64,000 nucleotides of DNA, taken from NCBI GenBank assembly GCA_965649295.1, contig CBFGKH010000006.1:117488-181487 (forward strand), in the 5' to 3' direction. The notes under the pieces are model-generated. The model ran no database searches. It was not told where the DNA came from and saw only the letters and a list, made by a program, of their open reading frames with translations. This document shows, piece after piece, positions 20,125 through 58,846 of the stretch (the stretch's first letter is position 1; each line of letters starts with the position of its first letter). Position numbers and translations under genes: made by a program. This stretch comes from a candidate division WOR-3 bacterium. Its GTDB lineage: Bacteria; Hydrothermota; Tepidihabitantia; Tepidihabitantales; Tepidihabitantaceae.

Positions 20125-21261
20125 ATGAAACGACTTGCGCTGTCCCTCTTTGTCCTGACATTTCTTGTCGCCGGCTGCGGCCAGCAGCCGGTGGTCTGGC
20201 AGTACCGGATTGACAGAAACAACGATGAGATGGCGAAGGCCATAACGACCGACGGCACGAACCTCTATGTCGGCGCGACCGTGGTAAGGCCGGACGGTTC
20301 GGACCGGGCAATACCGCTCGTCACCAAGCTCTCGCCCGATGGCAAGGAGCTATGGTCGAAGCTGTATCAGTACGCGGTGTACAGCACCTGCGAAGACCTG
20401 GTTGCTGACAGCACTGGCACCTGCTACTTGGTTGGCCGCGTCCGGCCCCAGGAGAAGACCGCCTGCCTGGTTGCCAGCTATGCGCCGGACAGCCGGGTGC
20501 TCTGGCAGAAAGGGCTCGAACTCGGGGACAAGACCTGGGGAATGGGCATCACCAAGGTCGGTGAAGACAAGCTCGCCATCTGCGGCCTTGCCGGCACCGA
20601 GGAGAACAGCGACTACCTGATTGCCCTGCTCAACGCTGGAGACGGCCGTACGATTTGGGCCCGCAACTACGACCTGAGCAAGAGCGACATCGCTTGGCGC
20701 ATCGCCAGCGACCACAAAGGCAATCTGGCAGTTGTCGGCCAACACGGTAACGATGACATCATCGTCATCAAGACAGCGCCGAACGGCGATACCCTCTGGA
20801 CCCGCAGCTATGACTCCGGCGGTGAGGACCGGGCTGGCGACATCGCCTTTGACCCGTTCGGCAACGTGCTTGTCACCGGCACGGCTCAAGTCGGCGATTC
20901 CACCCGCTGCGTCATCCTTGAATACGACCCGGACGGCGGCGTCATTCGCAAGGCCGCCTACGGTGAACAGGCTCAGGCCGAAGGCCGGGGCATCTGCGTC
21001 ACCCCCGCCAGCGACATCTTCATTGCCGGCACGCTGCTCGGTGCGAAGACCGCGACCGGACGCAAGGCCGAACTCCTCGCCTTCGAATACCGACCGAGTG
21101 CGGTGTCAGTTTGGGAGCGGCACTACGCACCATCAGGAGACGAAGCAGCGGGTGTGGACTTGGTCGTAGCCGACAATGTCTATGCCGTCGCCAACGTCAA
21201 CAGTCGAACCCGGGATGCCGTGGTCTGCTGCTTCAGCCGGCCAGTCCCAAAGCGACGTTAG
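20125..21261 (+). CDS. Lipoprotein with SBBP/PQQ-like beta-propeller repeats
   Basis: Lipobox LVAGC; repeats such as KTAPNGDTLWTRSYD and DPFGNVLVTG. Confidence 0.75.
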   Translation: MKRLALSLFVLTFLVAGCGQQPVVWQYRIDRNNDEMAKAITTDGTNLYVGATVVRPDGSDRAIPLVTKLSPDGKELWSKLYQYAVYSTCEDLVADSTGTCYLVGRVRPQEKTACLVASYAPDSRVLWQKGLELGDKTWGMGITKVGEDKLAICGLAGTEENSDYLIALLNAGDGRTIWARNYDLSKSDIAWRIASDHKGNLAVVGQHGNDDIIVIKTAPNGDTLWTRSYDSGGEDRAGDIAFDPFGNVLVTGTAQVGDSTRCVILEYDPDGGVIRKAAYGEQAQAEGRGICVTPASDIFIAGTLLGAKTATGRKAELLAFEYRPSAVSVWERHYAPSGDEAAGVDLVVADNVYAVANVNSRTRDAVVCCFSRPVPKRR

Positions 21262-21784: not shown

Positions 21785-23194
21785 ATGCTGGGGCTGCTGC
21801 TCGGGCTGATTGCATCTCCGCTGTCCGGGCCGGGCGACATCGGCCAGGCCTTCTTCAACCAGTCCTGGTGCCAGCAACCTACCAGCGGCCACTACCAACC
21901 ACCGCTGCCGCGTTCACTCGGCCTCGGCCAGGTTCTCCTTGACTCTGGCCCGATTACCGCCTACAGCGTCTGCACCGACACTAGCGGCACCGTCTGGCTC
22001 GCGCTCGCCCGAGCTGATGATACCCTGCGCCTACTCGCCTCCCACGACCAGGGTCAGACCTGGCAACAACAGCAATGGCTCTATGCTGGAGCGCCGCTCC
22101 GTCAGGTCAGGCTGCTTTCGCCGGTGGCTGGCCCGGTTGTCCTGCTGGCATTCGTTCTGGTCGCGAGTGGTGACGGTGACCTCTGGCTCTGGCGCGTCAA
22201 TCAGGACACCGGCTCGGCGCTGCTGCCGGTTGTTGTTGGCCCGGATACGATTGACGACTTTGCGGTGGCGCTCGACCGCACCACAAACTACTACACCTAC
22301 TGTGTCTATGTCAACGAGCGCCGGGCCGGCCGCACCGGTGGCTTCATCCGCAGTAGCGACCAGGGCCAGACCTGGAGTCCAGAAACCGACTTCTGGAACG
22401 CCCACGACCCCCAGCTTCTCGCCACCAACAGTTCAATGGTGCACGCTGCCTGGCGCTTTGCCATCGGCGGCACCCAGCTTCACTATGCCTACAACCGTCA
22501 CTGCGGAACACCCCGGTACTGGTCAACGGTTCGGACTCTCACCGCCAGCCGCTACCGCCACTCCTCACCGCTGTTGGCTCAGGCTGACACCGGTGGCGGC
22601 TACTGGTCAGCGGTCTGGGCATTCTCGACCGTCTATCGCTACGACACCCTCAGCCGCGAGATTGAGTATGCTTGGAGTCCCACTAACGGCGACTGGTGGT
22701 TCACCGGCAAAGCCTTGGGCAACAGCTTTGTCGAGCAGTGGCCGGTCAGCCTTGCCAGCGACCCGACCGGCCCGGGTGGTTTTGTCGGCCTGCTCTACCT
22801 TTCCGGCCGGATTCTGGCGCTCGACTCACTCCAGCTCTACTGGCGCTGCGCCAACATCTACAGCCCTGAGTTCTGGACCCCGCCGGTGCTGGTCAGCTCC
22901 TCGCCGGTCATCCCCGAACCGGCACCGCAGCTCTGCCATGTTCGGTTTGGCGACTGGCGCGGCCCGCTCGTCTTCTACTGCACCGCCGACTCCGCCCTCA
23001 ACATCGGCGCCGGCTGGCTGCCACCACCAAGCGACACCTCCCCGCGGCCAATCGTTGCCGGCCGCACCCCAAAGCCAACCGCCGCCATCTACGATGCGCT
23101 TGGCCGCCGCGTCAACCCGCAAAACCTTCGGCCCGGCATCTACTTCTACCGTCCGACCACCGGCCCCAGTTGCCGAACTCTCCTCCGACCCTGA
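21785..23194 (+). CDS. Secreted BNR-repeat protein, paralog of 421-1863, with short degenerate sorting tail
   Basis: SHDQGQTW, RSSDQGQTW; shares VGPDTI.DFA motif with 421-1863; tail IYDALGRRV..LRPGIYF. Confidence 0.7.
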   Translation: MLGLLLGLIASPLSGPGDIGQAFFNQSWCQQPTSGHYQPPLPRSLGLGQVLLDSGPITAYSVCTDTSGTVWLALARADDTLRLLASHDQGQTWQQQQWLYAGAPLRQVRLLSPVAGPVVLLAFVLVASGDGDLWLWRVNQDTGSALLPVVVGPDTIDDFAVALDRTTNYYTYCVYVNERRAGRTGGFIRSSDQGQTWSPETDFWNAHDPQLLATNSSMVHAAWRFAIGGTQLHYAYNRHCGTPRYWSTVRTLTASRYRHSSPLLAQADTGGGYWSAVWAFSTVYRYDTLSREIEYAWSPTNGDWWFTGKALGNSFVEQWPVSLASDPTGPGGFVGLLYLSGRILALDSLQLYWRCANIYSPEFWTPPVLVSSSPVIPEPAPQLCHVRFGDWRGPLVFYCTADSALNIGAGWLPPPSDTSPRPIVAGRTPKPTAAIYDALGRRVNPQNLRPGIYFYRPTTGPSCRTLLRP

Positions 23195-24990
23195 AACCAC
23201 TCCAGCCGCCCTTCTGTCCGACCACGGCCGCCGAAATGAAATCACTCGGCTGGGACGAGTGTGACATCATCATCGTCACCGGCGACGCCTACGTTGACCA
23301 TCCTGCCTTTGGAACAGCCATCATCAGTCGGGTGCTGCTCGCTGCCGGCTACCGCGTCGGCATCATCCCCCAACCGCGCTGGCAAAATCCGGTTGACATC
23401 AGCCGGCTCGGCCGGCCCCGGCTCTTCTTCGGCGTCACCGCCGGCAACGTTGACTCGCTTTTGGCCAACCACAGCCCCACCCTCAACCGGCGCCAGCGCG
23501 ACGACTACTCACCAGCCGGCCAGCCGGGCCGACGACCGGACCGGGCAACAATCGTCTATTGCAATCTCCTGCGGCAGGCTTTCCCCGATACCCCCCTCGT
23601 CATCGGCGGCATCGAAGCCAGCCTGCGCCGACTCGCCCACTACGACTACTGGACCGACTCGGTGCGCCGCTCCCTCCTCCTTGACACCCGCGCCGACATC
23701 CTTGCCTACGGCATGGCCGAACGAGCAGTCCTCACCATCGCCGAGCGCCTGAGCTGCCCCAGCCCTGACCTCGCTGGCATTCCCGGCACCGCCATCATCA
23801 GCCGCGACCCGCCCCCTGGCCCGCACGTACTGTTGCCGGCGTTCGAACAGGTAAGCAAAGACAAAGCCGCCTTCAATCAGGCGTTCCGCCGCTGGTATTG
23901 CGAAACCGCCAAGCCGGTTGTCCAACCCCACAGTGACCGGCTCGTAATCCAATACCCGCCCGGCCCACCACTCCCCACCGCCGAACTCGACCGCATCTAC
24001 GAACTCCCCTACTCGCGCCAGCCCCATCCGTCCTACCGGCAGCCAATACCGGCACTGGCCACCGTCCGATTCTCAATCACCTCCCATCGCGGCTGTCTTG
24101 GCACCTGCTCATTCTGCTCACTCGCCGCCCACCAGGGCCGCATAGTCCAGTCCCGCAGCCCCGAATCAATCCTGCGCGAAGCCCAAATCATCACCAAACT
24201 GGCCGACTTTCGCGGCCACATCACCGACATCGGCGGCCCCAGCGCCAACATGTACCAAGCCACCTGCCCGCAACTGCGACGAGGCACCGCCTGCGCCAAC
24301 CGCGAATGCACCCATCCCCAGCCCTGCCCCAATCTCCAACTCGCATTCGAACAACAACTCGAAATGCTCGCGGCAGTGCGAAGACTGCCCGAAGTCAAAA
24401 AAGTCTCGGTCGGCACCGGCATCCGCTTCGACCTCCTCGCCAACCCGGCCGGCACCCGCTACCTCGAACAACTCTGCCGCCACTACCTCTCCGGCCAGTT
24501 GCGCATTGCACCCGAACACGTCTCCGATCGAGTCCTCGCCGCCATGCACAAAGGCCGGCACGAGGCCTACCGCCAGTTCCGCCGCCGCTTCTATGCCATA
24601 AACCGGCAACTGGGGCGAAAACAATACCTGATACCCTACTTCATCTCCGGCCATCCCGGCGCGACAATCGAAGACGCCGTCCGCCTCGCCGAACACCTCG
24701 TGCGAACCGAACGTATCCTCATCCGGCAGGTGCAACAGTTCACCCCGCTGCCCATGACCGCGGCCGCTGCTGCCTGGCACACCGGCCATGACCCCTTCAC
24801 CGGCCAACCCCTGCCGGTTGCCCGCGACCCCAAAGAACAACGGCTCCAACGGGCCCTGCTCCAGCTTCAACAACCCAAAAACTTCAACTACGCTGTCCAA
24901 GAACTGCAGCGCCGCGGCCGACCCGACCTGGCCAAACGGCTCCTCGCCCTGCAGCCGCTGCTCAACCGCCGTCTTGACAGCCGCCAATGA
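23170..24990 (+). CDS. ygiQ: YgiQ family (UPF0313) radical SAM protein
   Basis: IVTGDAYVDHPAFG, GVTAGNVDS, HRGCLGTCSFC (CxxxCxxC), DIGGPSANMY, PYFISGHPG. Confidence 0.9.
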   Translation: MPNSPPTLKPLQPPFCPTTAAEMKSLGWDECDIIIVTGDAYVDHPAFGTAIISRVLLAAGYRVGIIPQPRWQNPVDISRLGRPRLFFGVTAGNVDSLLANHSPTLNRRQRDDYSPAGQPGRRPDRATIVYCNLLRQAFPDTPLVIGGIEASLRRLAHYDYWTDSVRRSLLLDTRADILAYGMAERAVLTIAERLSCPSPDLAGIPGTAIISRDPPPGPHVLLPAFEQVSKDKAAFNQAFRRWYCETAKPVVQPHSDRLVIQYPPGPPLPTAELDRIYELPYSRQPHPSYRQPIPALATVRFSITSHRGCLGTCSFCSLAAHQGRIVQSRSPESILREAQIITKLADFRGHITDIGGPSANMYQATCPQLRRGTACANRECTHPQPCPNLQLAFEQQLEMLAAVRRLPEVKKVSVGTGIRFDLLANPAGTRYLEQLCRHYLSGQLRIAPEHVSDRVLAAMHKGRHEAYRQFRRRFYAINRQLGRKQYLIPYFISGHPGATIEDAVRLAEHLVRTERILIRQVQQFTPLPMTAAAAAWHTGHDPFTGQPLPVARDPKEQRLQRALLQLQQPKNFNYAVQELQRRGRPDLAKRLLALQPLLNRRLDSRQ

Positions 24991-25029
24991 CCAAAGCTAC
25001 ACTTCGCTGAAACTGAAAGGAGATAGGCT

Positions 25030-25647
25030 ATGAGGCACTTGCCGTGGCTGACCCTGCTCCTGCTCAGCGCGGGCTGCAACCCGTTCCAGCAGGACAAAGA
25101 GTTCAAACCCAAAGGAACCCCGTTCACCCTCAATCCGGCAATCACCGTCACCGCCCTCTACGGCTCAGACACCGGCTACAGCCGCCACGGGTTCTTCAAC
25201 CTCGAACTACGCGGCCGGGCCACTACCATTGTCATCGAAACCCTGCCCGGCGGACTCTTCTTCATCCCCAAAAACAAAGAGACCCAGAACCTGATAGTCA
25301 TCAAGCCCCAGGTCTTCTTATTCAGCACCGTCGAGACAACCTATGTCATCGGCGCATTCTGCTGCAACGCCGGCCTCCACGCGCCCGACGCATCAGACGA
25401 CTACACAATAGGCCCGGTTACCGACAATCCTGACCTGCGGAAGATTGTCAACATTTGCGCCGACCGCGACCTCACCTTTCACGGATTCCTGGTCCAGGAA
25501 GCAGTCTGGCAGGTAACCGATGGCGACGGCCTCACCCCGGGCATGGAAGACTCGCTGCGCAACCTGCTACCACCCGACACCTCGCGCCTGCCCGAACCAA
25601 CGTCATTGCCCCTGCGACCACTAAAACCGCAACCCCGAAAATACTAG
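25030..25647 (+). CDS. Lipoprotein with thioester-domain-like motifs (FCCN, QEAVW), paralog 1
   Basis: Lipobox LSAGC; GAFCCN..P..YTIGPVTDNPDLR..VQEAVWQVTD. Confidence 0.75.
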   Translation: MRHLPWLTLLLLSAGCNPFQQDKEFKPKGTPFTLNPAITVTALYGSDTGYSRHGFFNLELRGRATTIVIETLPGGLFFIPKNKETQNLIVIKPQVFLFSTVETTYVIGAFCCNAGLHAPDASDDYTIGPVTDNPDLRKIVNICADRDLTFHGFLVQEAVWQVTDGDGLTPGMEDSLRNLLPPDTSRLPEPTSLPLRPLKPQPRKY

Positions 25648-25650
25648 CCA

Positions 25651-26211
25651 ATGCGCCGGCTGCTACCCGTCCTGCTGCTCCTGCTCCTGGCCGGCTGCGA
25701 CTACCTGGGCACCGGCGAATTTGAGCCAACCGGCACGCCATTCAACCTCAATCCGCAGCTCGACGTTGTCGCCATCACCGGCAGCCCGGAAACCGACCCC
25801 CGCGGCCCAATGACAATGCGAATGACCCTCGCCTCAAACACCGGTAGCCCGGCCAGCGACCTACTGCCCGCCGGACTAACCCTCCGCCGGCGCAACACCA
25901 CTGCCCAGCACATGATACTCCTCAAACCGCATGCCGTCACCGCTCCGGCCACCGGCAGCACCGCCAATCGCCTTGGCGCGTTCTGCTGCAACCGCTGGCG
26001 CCGACCGCCCGAAATCGAAGACGCCTACGACATCGGCCCGATAACCGACGACCCCGGGCTGCGCCAGATTATCGCACTCGTTCGCGACAAAGACATCAGT
26101 GACGGCAGCAACATGTGGATGGTGCAACGCGCAGTCTATATGGTCACCGATTCAACTGGGCTGAATCAGGCTTACATTGACTCGCTCAATTCCTTGCCAC
26201 CGGCTCGTTGA
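25651..26211 (+). CDS. Lipoprotein with thioester-domain-like motifs (FCCN, QRAVY), paralog 2
   Basis: Lipobox LLAGC; GAFCCN..PP..YDIGPITDDPGLR..VQRAVYMVTD. Confidence 0.75.
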   Translation: MRRLLPVLLLLLLAGCDYLGTGEFEPTGTPFNLNPQLDVVAITGSPETDPRGPMTMRMTLASNTGSPASDLLPAGLTLRRRNTTAQHMILLKPHAVTAPATGSTANRLGAFCCNRWRRPPEIEDAYDIGPITDDPGLRQIIALVRDKDISDGSNMWMVQRAVYMVTDSTGLNQAYIDSLNSLPPAR

Positions 26212-26221
26212 AGCGGATGCG

Positions 26222-28336
26222 CTAGGAGCCGAGTAGGGTCAGGGTGATGGTGCTGCTCTCGCCTTCGCCAGCCAGTCGGCAGAAATAGACGCCGGTCGCC
26301 AGTCGGTTCCCGAACTCGTCAAGTCCGTCCCATCCAACCGAATGCTCGCCAGCACCAAGGTAACTGTCGAGGAGCGTGCGCACTGCCCTGCCCGACCGGT
26401 CAAATATCGTCATCCGCACCCGCTGCCCTAGCTGCAGGCCAAACCGAATGGTTGCCCCATAACGAACCGGGTTGGGTTGCACCCAAAGACGCTGGCCGAC
26501 TTGGCTGATTGTTGGGCCGGTCCTTGCCAAGGCCAAGGGTGGAGTTTGGTAGTGCTCAATCGGGTAGCCGGGCTCGAGGTCACGACCATTGAACCCGGGA
26601 AAGTCCGGGGCATAGCGTGTTGCCCGGAAGACACTGCTGCTACTAGTCGGGTCGTCGCCCTGCACCAGCGGTGCGGCGGCGACCGGATTCTGGTAGCGCC
26701 AGACAATCCTGCAGTCGGCGGCGACTTCCCGGAAGTTGCCCTTGCCGCCCTCGCAGATCAGGGTATTGCCGTTTGGCAGTCGGTGCGCTCCTGAGATGTA
26801 GGCCGAGAAAAGACTGGAAGGCGGGTCGGCCCGATAGCTCCAGACCAGTTCGCGCGGGCCGTGCGGAACGCCCGGCAACGGCCGTGGATAGCGGCCGGTG
26901 CTGTCTGCCGGCGGCGTGAACTCATCAACTGTCGAGAAACTGCCGCCCGGCCGGTTCAGGCCGTTGTTGTACACCATCAGGTTGCCGGCGCCGGGCAGGC
27001 CGGGCTCAATCCAACGGACGTCGTGCTGGCCAAAGAAGACCTGGTCCATGGCGGTGCCGGCGCGATAGGCCTGGGGATTGCCCCAGCGGTAAAGGATGTC
27101 GCCGCCCATTCCTTGCCGGCCTCCGGTGTGGCCGCGAGCTTCTTCGGTAGTGGTGCTGTGGTCAATTATCCAAATCTCGTTCAGGTTGCGAACGCTGAGC
27201 GCAATCTGGTCCAGCTCAGGGTTGTAGTCAATCGCATTGATGTGCAGCCAGTCTGGGTAGTTTGTGCCGAAGTTGATGTCAACCAGTTCGGGGTGGTCGG
27301 CGACGACGCCGTAGTTGGCTTTGGTTGAGTCGTAGTCTTGAATGAGGTGGTCCCAGACGTGCCATTCCCAGACGATGCGGTTGGTGGCGGGGTCAACCTC
27401 GATGACGTGGTCGGGCCGGAAGCTGTTGAGTACCAGTCCCGGCCGACGACCGGCTGCCAGGGCTTCGGCCCTTGTTTTTGACTCGTAGGCCACCATCAGC
27501 ACGTGGCCGTTGGGCATTGGTTCGACGTCGTGATGCTGACAGTGGAGCGTGTCGGCACAATTGAACGCCCAGATCAGGTTGCCGTTCCAGTCGTAGCGCT
27601 CAACCCGGCCGCCCGGCGCCGAGAACGGGTTGTTGACGCTGGCTGGCCGCAGCAGGCTGCCGTCGGGCAGAAGATAGGCAGAAAGCCCGGGCGTGTACGC
27701 ACTCTGCCACGACCGAATTAGTCGGCCGCAGTTGTCAATGAGATAGGTCTTGGTGGAAAGGATTGGAGCAAAGAGCGTGTAACCCGGCGACGCGCCGCTG
27801 TCGTTCTGCAGTAGCCCAACTGTCGTCCGCTCGGCCGAAAGCTCAACTGCATAGCTTCCGAGTGAGGAATCAGCGCGAAGGTCGTTCCAAGTCCCGACTC
27901 GCCGGCCAACAGCCTCACCGAGATTGACGGCATTGGCGCCACCGGCATTGTCCGGTTCACCGGCTGTCCAGTCCCGGTAGTTCATCGGCTCGCCGGTAAT
28001 CCAGGTCCAACCGCTGTCCGGCTCTGGCGAACCAGCCGGCTGATACCCACCCAGCCATGGTCCAGCCAATCTGCCGTCTGGCCGTTTTCGCCAGAAACGA
28101 TCGGCGTCGGCCTGTGCGAACAGAAATGAATCCTCGGCCGGCGAGGTCAGCGTGGCGAGATAGCCGCCGCGGGCCACTGCTGAGTCATTGGCCTGATACC
28201 AGTTTATCCCCCTATCAACGTTGATGACGTGATAGTAGTGAATCGTGCCGTCAGGATGAACCCACGGCTCCGGCTGGGCGAAAACCGTTCCGGCAAGAGA
28301 AAGAGCAATAGCAACGAACAGTGACTTTGGTCTCAT
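26222..28336 (-). CDS. Secreted C-type lectin + aryl-sulfate sulfotransferase (ASST) + FlgD-Ig/T9SS-like domain fusion
   Basis: Lectin: GGYLATLTS..WLGG..GEPDN..WNDL. ASST: QHHD, WLHINAIDY, LSVRN, GQHDV. C-terminal PNP..WDGLDEFGNRLATGVYF. Confidence 0.85.
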   Translation of the reverse strand: MRPKSLFVAIALSLAGTVFAQPEPWVHPDGTIHYYHVINVDRGINWYQANDSAVARGGYLATLTSPAEDSFLFAQADADRFWRKRPDGRLAGPWLGGYQPAGSPEPDSGWTWITGEPMNYRDWTAGEPDNAGGANAVNLGEAVGRRVGTWNDLRADSSLGSYAVELSAERTTVGLLQNDSGASPGYTLFAPILSTKTYLIDNCGRLIRSWQSAYTPGLSAYLLPDGSLLRPASVNNPFSAPGGRVERYDWNGNLIWAFNCADTLHCQHHDVEPMPNGHVLMVAYESKTRAEALAAGRRPGLVLNSFRPDHVIEVDPATNRIVWEWHVWDHLIQDYDSTKANYGVVADHPELVDINFGTNYPDWLHINAIDYNPELDQIALSVRNLNEIWIIDHSTTTEEARGHTGGRQGMGGDILYRWGNPQAYRAGTAMDQVFFGQHDVRWIEPGLPGAGNLMVYNNGLNRPGGSFSTVDEFTPPADSTGRYPRPLPGVPHGPRELVWSYRADPPSSLFSAYISGAHRLPNGNTLICEGGKGNFREVAADCRIVWRYQNPVAAAPLVQGDDPTSSSSVFRATRYAPDFPGFNGRDLEPGYPIEHYQTPPLALARTGPTISQVGQRLWVQPNPVRYGATIRFGLQLGQRVRMTIFDRSGRAVRTLLDSYLGAGEHSVGWDGLDEFGNRLATGVYFCRLAGEGESSTITLTLLGS

Positions 28337-58228: not shown

Positions 58229-58846
58229 ATGAAAAAACTGCTGCTCGTCCTGCCGCTGCTGGCCGGCCTCGTGCTCGTCGGCTGCGACACAACACCAGAC
58301 TACTACCCGCTGACTGTCGGTAGTGTCTGGAACTACACCGGCTACACGACGATGACCACGTCGCTGGCTTCAACCGACACGATGGTCAAGCTCGACCAGC
58401 GGGTCCAGATTACAAAGTCCGACACCCTCAACTCTGGACTCCAGGTAGTCGAAGTCATAACGACAATCACTCAGGATATGGCGATGCCGGACACCACCAT
58501 AACCGTCGTTGATACAAGCTACTACCACGAGACCGACTCAAGCATCGTGGTCTATCCCGACAAAGCCGCAACCGCCGGCGAGACGGTAATCCGTCTGCCG
58601 CTCGAAGCCGGCAAGACCTGGACCCAGGCCGGCGCAACAACCACCGTAGTTGAGCAGGAAGACGTGACTGTTCCCGCCGGCACCTACAAAAAAGCCTGGC
58701 GCCTGGAGACATCAGTAACCGGTGTCACAACCGGCAAGGCCTGGTATGCCAACAAGACCGGGCTTGTCAAGTACGCCATGACCTACACCGGCGGTGGCGT
58801 AACCTACAACACCGTCGTTGAACTGAAGTCAGCCACGGTCAAATAG
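58229..58846 (+). CDS. Lipoprotein, beta-rich (TVPAGTY motif, DUF3108/TapB-like)
   Basis: Lipobox LVGC; YYPL.VG..W.Y; VTVPAGTY; WYA..GLVK. Promoter TTGACA-N17-TATCTT; SD AAGGAGG. Confidence 0.8.
   Translation: MKKLLLVLPLLAGLVLVGCDTTPDYYPLTVGSVWNYTGYTTMTTSLASTDTMVKLDQRVQITKSDTLNSGLQVVEVITTITQDMAMPDTTITVVDTSYYHETDSSIVVYPDKAATAGETVIRLPLEAGKTWTQAGATTTVVEQEDVTVPAGTYKKAWRLETSVTGVTTGKAWYANKTGLVKYAMTYTGGGVTYNTVVELKSATVK

Follow-up and report, generated by a model that had tools for sequence, protein, structure and literature searches.

The window analysed here is a 64,000-nucleotide stretch from a diderm of the candidate division WOR-3 group (GenBank assembly GCA_965649295.1, contig CBFGKH010000006.1, positions 117,488 to 181,487). 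It carries, at 25030-26211 on the + strand, a tandem pair of lipoprotein genes (paralogs 1 and 2). With confidence slightly above even, we read each product as a distant relative of the thioester domains (TEDs) of Gram-positive adhesins that appears to be circularly permuted, is anchored by an N-terminal lipid and holds a thioester between Cys111 and Gln86 (paralog 1 numbering). Both proteins belong to a common family, possess a lipobox, keep the conserved family motifs and share profile homology with TEDs, and Gln86 co-varies with Cys111 across the family. The thioester itself, the proximity of the Gln86 and Cys111 strands, surface exposure in WOR-3 and a target to be captured are what we infer.

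In the open reading frames (ORFs), paralog 2 begins 4 nt past the end of paralog 1, and the two products align end to end with 39% identity (E = 1e-34). A hydrophobic signal peptide runs in both up to a lipobox at residues 11-16 (LLSAGC in paralog 1, LLLAGC in paralog 2) with Cys16 as the lipidation site; these lipoboxes were assigned by the motif L-x-[GA]-C alone and not by a predictor. GAFCCN, Y(T/D)IGP(V/I)TD(N/D)P(D/G)LR(K/Q)I and VQ(E/R)AV(W/Y)(Q/M)VTD are common to the two proteins; LNQAY occurs in paralog 2 only and a distal PQP in paralog 1 only. An earlier note, made from the letters of the window, had described two tandem lipoprotein genes with a lipobox and these motifs, and they were found as described. 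The paralogs diverge most in the N-terminal sandwich and in the loop past the Cys, and they are the only two copies of the family in the 64-kb window. Their features are as follows.

25019..25022, + strand: Shine-Dalgarno-like GGAG, 8 nt upstream of the paralog 1 ATG (from sequence)
25030..25647, + strand: paralog 1, 205-aa lipoprotein of the permuted TED-like family (ORF; close WOR-3 homologues; AlphaFold2 (AF2) model with a mean predicted local distance difference test score (pLDDT) of 90.2)
25030..25077, + strand: signal peptide and lipobox of paralog 1, MRHLPWLTLLLLSAGC, lipidated Cys16 predicted (from sequence)
25111..25305, + strand: N-terminal beta-sandwich of paralog 1, aa 28-92 (AF2 secondary structure; Foldseek gives Ig-like sandwiches only)
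25243..25290, + strand: hairpin of paralog 1, LPGGLFFIPKNKETQN, with the candidate thioester Gln86 (codon 25285-25287; from conservation, co-loss, coupling and permuted alignment)
25357..25368, + strand: FCCN of paralog 1, resembling TED [YFL]C-Phi-zeta, with the candidate thioester Cys111 (codon 25360-25362; from conservation and TED alignment)
25429..25566, + strand: three-helix region of paralog 1, aa 134-179 (AF2 helices 134-143, 152-164 and 170-179)
25492..25521, + strand: VQEAVWQVTD on helix 2 of paralog 1, resembling TED TQxx-Phi-W on alpha-2 (profile match to 5a0g/5a0d)
25651..26211, + strand: paralog 2, 186-aa lipoprotein of the same family (ORF; 39% identity; exhaustive search)
25687..25698, + strand: lipobox LAGC of paralog 2 with Cys16 (from sequence)
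25864..25911, + strand: hairpin of paralog 2, LPAGLTLRRRNTTAQH, with Gln86 (codon 25906-25908; from sequence)
25981..25992, + strand: FCCN of paralog 2 with the candidate thioester Cys112 (codon 25984-25986; from sequence)
26122..26151, + strand: helix motif VQRAVYMVTD of paralog 2 (from sequence)

Homology to thioester domains

Neither paralog reached a Pfam or NCBIfam threshold or gave a meaningful sequence match in the PDB. An exhaustive phmmer search with paralog 2 as the query against 1.84 billion representatives returned 189 clusters (50% identity, E<=1e-3), 46 of them with E<=1e-10. Because the paralogs are 39% identical from end to end and belong to a family of this size, the observed pair with its motifs is far beyond chance. 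A profile search with the family alignment for more homologous proteins gained little, and 12 additional members scanned singly against Pfam gave no relevant match. PF08341 (TED) was the sole recurrent Pfam family among the 124 aligned sequences, matching 16 of them with a best E of 0.012.

In TEDs, the Cys of the motif [YFL]C-Phi-zeta lies on a strand and the bond-forming Gln lies elsewhere; a second motif, TQxx-Phi-W, belongs to helix alpha-2 in a bundle of three helices, and its Gln and Trp make hydrogen bonds to the Cys backbone without being essential (Walden 2015; Miller 2018). The earlier note had described the Cys of [YF]C, the TQxx helix and a Gln situated elsewhere, in agreement with Walden 2015. 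For profile comparison, genuine TEDs were represented by PDB alignments and by a protein from a Ligilactobacillus plasmid that bears the annotation 'Cys-Gln thioester bond-forming surface protein'. A homologous-protein search with a genuine TED as the query returned Ligilactobacillus relatives only, and tblastn of a TED against plasmids gained no diversity.

The 124-sequence family alignment was compared with a five-sequence TED alignment using hhalign. The match (probability 94.6%, E = 7e-8, 73 columns) starts at the Cys motif and takes in helices 2 and 3, pairing 'yC~N~~R' with 'aYC~N~sK~~P' and 'Q~AVW~iTDg..gLt' with 'Q~AiW~ysDS..Ls'. The true comparison scored 50.2, the reversed TED alignment 12.4, and 59 of 60 column shuffles 16.5 or less, the lone exception being a four-column artefact. 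When columns 68-92 were placed behind helix 3, the permuted alignment covered 93 columns (probability 96.1%, E = 2.9e-9) and brought Gln86 onto the thioester Gln of TEDs; with the order left native, the best alternative hhalign alignment was the same hairpin pairing (P = 0.077). A hidden Markov model (HMM) of the family matched 5a0g/5a0d (CpTIE-TED) in the PDB with E = 0.004 at the VQxAVW helix and 4c0z with E = 0.55. It falls on TEDs in two collinear blocks (lyClNesrsas/AYCINESKKLP and vQdavWeiTdg/TQLAIWHYSDS). The TED-like resemblance put forward in the earlier note thus appears to be real remote homology and not a chance recurrence of motifs, and for the Cys-to-helix part this homology is well supported by the profile comparisons.

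The candidate Cys-Gln pair

In the family alignment, the conserved positions are Pro73 (112/124), Gly75 (116/124), Gln86 (116/124), Cys111 (111/124), Asn113 (118/124), Gly128 (115/124), Gln156 (120/124), an aromatic residue at 160 (Trp, Tyr or Phe in 117/124), Thr163 (107/124) and Asp or Glu at 164 (107/124). Where Cys111 is replaced, the residue is Ser in eight sequences, Gly in four and Ala in one. The Cys motif of the whole family is [YF]C[LIVCA]N, and the position after the first Cys is variously C, L, V, I, A, T or G. The earlier note had remarked on the doubled Cys of FCCN; the doublet is present in both paralogs, but only its first Cys is conserved, and the second is best regarded, from the alignment, as a quirk of the clade and not as a family feature. 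A redox, metal or vicinal-disulfide function of the doublet, which the note had offered as one option, was therefore rejected. No conserved His was found in the 124-sequence alignment, nor a second conserved Cys or an acidic cluster. Cys-protease, nitrilase-like and isopeptide readings were also dropped, there being no conserved His and Lys146 being replaced by Arg in 20 sequences, paralog 1 among them. Five members (P0018, P0024, P0025, P0035 and P0036) keep Gln86 and have Ser in place of the Cys; these could form an oxo-ester like that of Thr-Gln ester domains, or could be inactive.

TEDs place the bond-forming Gln in a Phi-Q-zeta-Phi-Phi strand after the helices. No conserved Gln was found past helix 3 in the family, in which the protein stops about 25 residues after that helix, and a TED-type Gln strand in that position is lacking. 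The upstream equivalent is T-Q-N-L-I at 85-89, which aligns with the TED Gln only after permutation. Gln86 is set in L-P-x-G-L-x-F-x-S-(5)-Q-N-Phi-Phi, which is similar to the hairpin I-P-x-N-L-x-L-N-Phi-Y-(5)-Y-Q-N-L-L at the C-terminus of TEDs. With the native order, the strand of this Gln, TQNLIVIKP, leads directly into the hairpin ending in Cys, and this order is the outcome that would be expected from joining the C-terminus of a TED to its N-terminus.

The two residues also tend to be kept or lost together. Cys111 is missing in all eight sequences that lack Gln86 and in five of the 116 that have it, all five with Ser. On a tree built without both columns, Gln86 changed at least seven times and Cys111 at least ten times. 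Five well-supported independent pairs differ at Gln86; Cys111 shifts in the same direction in about five of them and in the opposite direction in none. The helix residue Gln156 never follows Cys111 on the tree. Mean-field direct coupling analysis (161 sequences, effective number 138) was restricted to the gap-poor part, since a full-length run was swamped by gap artefacts. It ranked Gln86-Cys111 seventh of 6328 pairs and 87-113 forty-first; coupled pairs involving residues 179-183 are probably artefacts of the alignment end. An apparent compensatory contact between Gly88 and Cys112 (Fisher p = 9e-17) proved to be a single clade split on the tree and was not used. The helix Gln of TQxAVW as the thioester Gln is contradicted by Walden 2015 and Miller 2018 and does not co-vary with the Cys here. 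On the hairpin context, co-loss, tree test, direct coupling and permuted TED alignment, Gln86, upstream of Cys111, is our candidate for the thioester Gln. An upstream Gln had been among the options of the earlier note, and it is the one the data favour, as Gln86 is nearly invariant and disappears together with Cys111. A pair that is bonded or acts jointly would be expected to show strict co-loss and coupling of this kind.

The AF2 model of paralog 1, calculated with the family alignment (pLDDT 90.2, predicted template modelling score 0.81), consists of a beta-sandwich (28-131) followed by helices 134-143, 152-164 and 170-179. FCCN closes strand 103-111, and VQEAVW lies on the second of the three helices. 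A sandwich and three helices with Q-x-A-V-W on helix 2 match, at the level of the model, the TED head as Miller 2018 describes it. Modelled alone, residues 66-183 reached a pLDDT of 96.9, and the only two-residue bridges in this fragment model are 88-89 and 110-111, which suggests that the strands of Gln86 and Cys111 pair.

Several results weigh against this interpretation. Neither paralog matches PF08341 at E<=10, and the matches in relatives all lie below its gathering threshold of 22 bits; in the one case inspected (P0110) the match scored 13.4 bits over 20 residues and covered the helix only. The Gln hairpin alone aligns weakly with TEDs (P = 0.006-0.08). Alignment with the Class II TEDs of pLS20-type plasmids is weak as well (P = 0.03 for the Cys motif, 0.26 for the hairpin), although it falls on the right residues, with Gln86 on Gln256. 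The sign test on the independent pairs gives p = 0.0625, which is the floor with five pairs. The TED fold combines a six-stranded barrel with a bundle of three helices. In a Foldseek search of the PDB the whole model matched Ig-like sandwiches best (ASF1, E = 0.03, TM 0.2), with no TED in the top 50. SfbI-TED (5a0l) was the top match of the 66-183 fragment among 350,542 chains, but a weak one (E = 0.72, TM 0.25). Foldseek aligns in sequence order, so that a permutation would hide most of the match.

It is unlikely, but deserves to be taken seriously, that the fold derives from TEDs and forms no thioester. The Cys, the Gln and the helix motif would then be kept for packing or for non-covalent ligand binding, and Cys111 would be a free thiol or a redox-sensitive or metal-contacting residue. 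The homology to TEDs is supported but the thioester is putative, the fold similarity is weak, and the five members with Gln86 have Ser at 111, the equivalent change (C68S) being one that inactivates a genuine TED adhesin (PMC8092201). Strict co-loss of Gln86 and Cys111 in several lineages and their strong direct coupling speak instead for a pair that is bonded or acts jointly, and metal or disulfide chemistry would have no second conserved Cys, His or acidic cluster to draw on. We give rather little weight to the view that these are Ig-like and helical lipoproteins unrelated to TEDs, their motifs convergent and Cys111 and Gln86 part of an enzyme site of another kind, such as an acyl-enzyme Cys paired with a Gln in the oxyanion hole. 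No significant Foldseek match to a TED was obtained, the HMMER-level matches are limited to short motifs and the linear order of elements is unlike that of every described TED, all of which would suit convergence. Three collinear or permuted motif blocks nevertheless match in the expected secondary-structure setting, and hhalign scores the comparison far above its controls. A classical Cys hydrolase is also unlikely because there is neither a conserved His nor an invariant general base (residue 146 is Lys or Arg and residue 164 Asp or Glu).

The earlier note had also considered a thioester formed in trans between the paralogs, or a vicinal Cys-Cys site of redox, metal or disulfide type. Either is very improbable. 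In their favour, both window copies have CC and the tandem pair is kept in one relative (L014). Against them, the paralog-2 orthologue of L014 reads FCLN, and the second Cys is L, V, I, A, T or G in most of the family. A trans bond is also unnecessary since each paralog has its own Cys and its own Gln86 and most relatives are single-copy genes.

Hosts, anchoring and genomic neighbourhood

The closest relatives are metagenomic and 50-68% identical, one of them labelled candidate division WOR-3. Members that carry an organism name are from Telluribacter and Chitinophaga, both Bacteroidota, and Sphingomonas naasensis, all of them diderm. A lipobox was recognised in 97 or more of the 124 aligned members. 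In many Bacteroidota-type members, S/K-K/D-D/E-rich residues follow the lipobox Cys directly and match C-x-K-(D/E)2, a surface-export signal (Lauber 2016). For the Bacteroidota relatives this signal predicts a cell-surface location; the WOR-3 paralogs may be surface-exposed.

Long versions of 402-532 aa with the domain at the C-terminus (L012:5001-6599 and the P0048 locus) lie in defence or mobile-element islands, one adjoining BREX genes (PglZ, BrxL) and a transposase and the other flanked by type I/III restriction-like helicase-methylase and UvrD/PD-(D/E)xK genes. The most populous cluster (P0130/P0166, 102 member sequences) is represented at L010:5001-5804 in an apparent integrated element that also carries an Arm-type integrase, an SNase and the toxin-antitoxin pair Fic/VbhA. 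Elsewhere in the window, 58229-58846 (+) encodes a 205-aa lipoprotein (LVLVGC) that is Thr-rich and all-beta by eye. It matches the family HMM (E = 0.012) through the signal peptide only and is unrelated.

Upstream of the pair, a YgiQ-family radical SAM gene (23170-24990, +; Radical_SAM_N, E = 5.6e-116, and DUF3362) ends 40 nt before paralog 1, and the two are possibly co-transcribed. In the WOR-3 relative L014, a radical SAM gene (4-nt gap) is followed by orthologues of paralogs 1 and 2 in tandem and then by a Kelch propeller with a Por_Secre_tail. The radical SAM link is absent from more distant relatives. Convergent with the pair, 26222-28336 (-) encodes a 704-aa exported arylsulfotransferase-type beta-propeller (PF05935, E = 1.7e-25) with a C-terminal FlgD-Ig domain like those of type IX secretion system (T9SS) cargo. 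Its N-terminal ~160 residues have the look of a C-type lectin by eye (WLGG...GWxWxxGEP...EPDN). At L005 a family member adjoins a 55%-identical orthologue of this arylsulfotransferase-like protein. In two Bacteroidota loci (L001:6001-8325 and L007:5001-7253), a 520-aa DUF5122 beta-propeller with a Por_Secre_tail begins 4 nt past the family gene and a 367-aa protein without a Pfam match precedes it; these loci are syntenic and count as one observation. Further upstream in the window, 21785-23194 (+) and 20125-21261 (+) encode exported repeat or propeller proteins with weak BNR and SBBP/PQQ matches, the former ending, by eye, in a T9SS-like tail (...PGIYFYRP).

A search of these loci for a conserved partner gene found none. 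A T9SS-tailed propeller lies near the window pair and near the family genes of L005, L014, L001 and L007, but not of L008, L010, L012 or L015. No obligatory partner emerges from these loci, and the recurrence of T9SS-cargo neighbours is only a lead, weakened because cargo of this type is very common in these genomes.

Proposed mechanism and comparison with known systems

Under the permuted-TED reading, each paralog would be exported, receive its lipid at Cys16 and be held in the outer membrane. Past Cys16 would come an Ig-like beta-sandwich whose last hairpin (LPxGLxFxS.....QN) bears Gln86, then the strand ending in [YF]-C-x-N with Cys111, then a three-helix bundle with VQxAVW on helix 2, the protein ending after helix 3. 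Cys111 and Gln86, on neighbouring strands, would form an intramolecular thioester autocatalytically with loss of NH3, and, as in TEDs, the helix Gln and Trp would form hydrogen bonds with the Cys backbone. A primary amine of the target would then attack the thioester, giving an isopeptide bond to Gln86 and tethering the target to the lipid-anchored protein. Such capture may be reversible, as the SfbI-TED reaction has been shown to be (Tokunaga 2026). With the sandwich and the Gln hairpin at the N-terminus, the stalk would stand beside an N-terminal lipid anchor and not a C-terminal sortase anchor. The differences between the paralogs in the sandwich and the post-Cys loop could mean different targets.

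More tentatively, and at somewhat less than even confidence, we propose that diderms (WOR-3, Bacteroidota, Sphingomonas and others) display a minimal permuted TED on an N-terminal lipid anchor, with the permutation matching the reversed polarity of the anchor, and that its reactive Gln86-Cys111 thioester bonds the envelope to amine targets. What is captured might be particles, other cells or the organism's own secreted T9SS cargo, often encoded next door. If this is true, covalent 'chemical harpoon' chemistry is no speciality of Gram-positive bacteria, and at least 189 clusters (50% identity) invisible to Pfam and NCBIfam would bring covalent adhesion to the outer-membrane lipoproteins of environmental diderms. 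A natural circularly permuted TED of only ~160 residues would also inform on the minimal needs of a thioester and might offer a small covalent-capture module.

Bacterial alpha-2-macroglobulins such as E. coli ECAM/YfhM are also lipid-anchored proteins of Gram-negative bacteria with an internal Cys-Gln thioester. They differ in being protease traps whose multidomain fold is very large and unrelated and whose Cys and Gln stand three residues apart in CxEQ, and no similarity of the family to them was detected.

In the literature open to search, TEDs are reported from Gram-positive bacteria only. The best profile match of the family is to Class I TEDs (CpTIE-TED 5A0G/5A0D, SfbI-TED 5A0L and Cpa-type 4C0Z; PF08341), with which it shares a [YF]C-Phi-N motif that has a basic residue and Pro after it, Q-x-A-V-W-x-x-T-D on the second helix of a three-helix bundle, and a 'Phi-P-x-G/N-L-x-Phi-x-Phi ..... 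Q-N-Phi-Phi' hairpin with a conserved Gln. This hairpin precedes the Cys strand in the family, whereas in Class I TEDs it follows the helices, a difference that looks like a circular permutation. The family also has an extra N-terminal beta-sandwich and lacks the alpha-0 helix and stalk domains. The paralogs, at 186-205 aa, have neither LPXTG nor repeats, unlike TIE-type adhesins, in which an N-terminal TED tops a stalk of isopeptide or ester domains that ends in a C-terminal LPXTG anchor. The anchor is an N-terminal lipid in diderms as opposed to the C-terminal LPXTG of Class I TEDs; the family stays below the Pfam threshold, and its thioester is putative.

In Class II TEDs the Ig-like sandwich supplies the thioester Gln through a hairpin and there is no alpha-0 helix (Miller 2018). 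These proteins (BaTIE 6FWV, SaTIE, EfmTIE86 and the pLS20 TIE adhesin) thus share with the family a TED head, an Ig-like sandwich, a Gln hairpin and the lack of alpha-0. Their sandwich and hairpin are inserted past helix 3 as a slipknot, whereas in the family these elements come first. Because the sequence similarity is weak, the parallel is one of architecture only. The family would work like TEDs, is probably descended from them and, as its anchor and host range differ, is described as a variant and not as a member of the TEDs.

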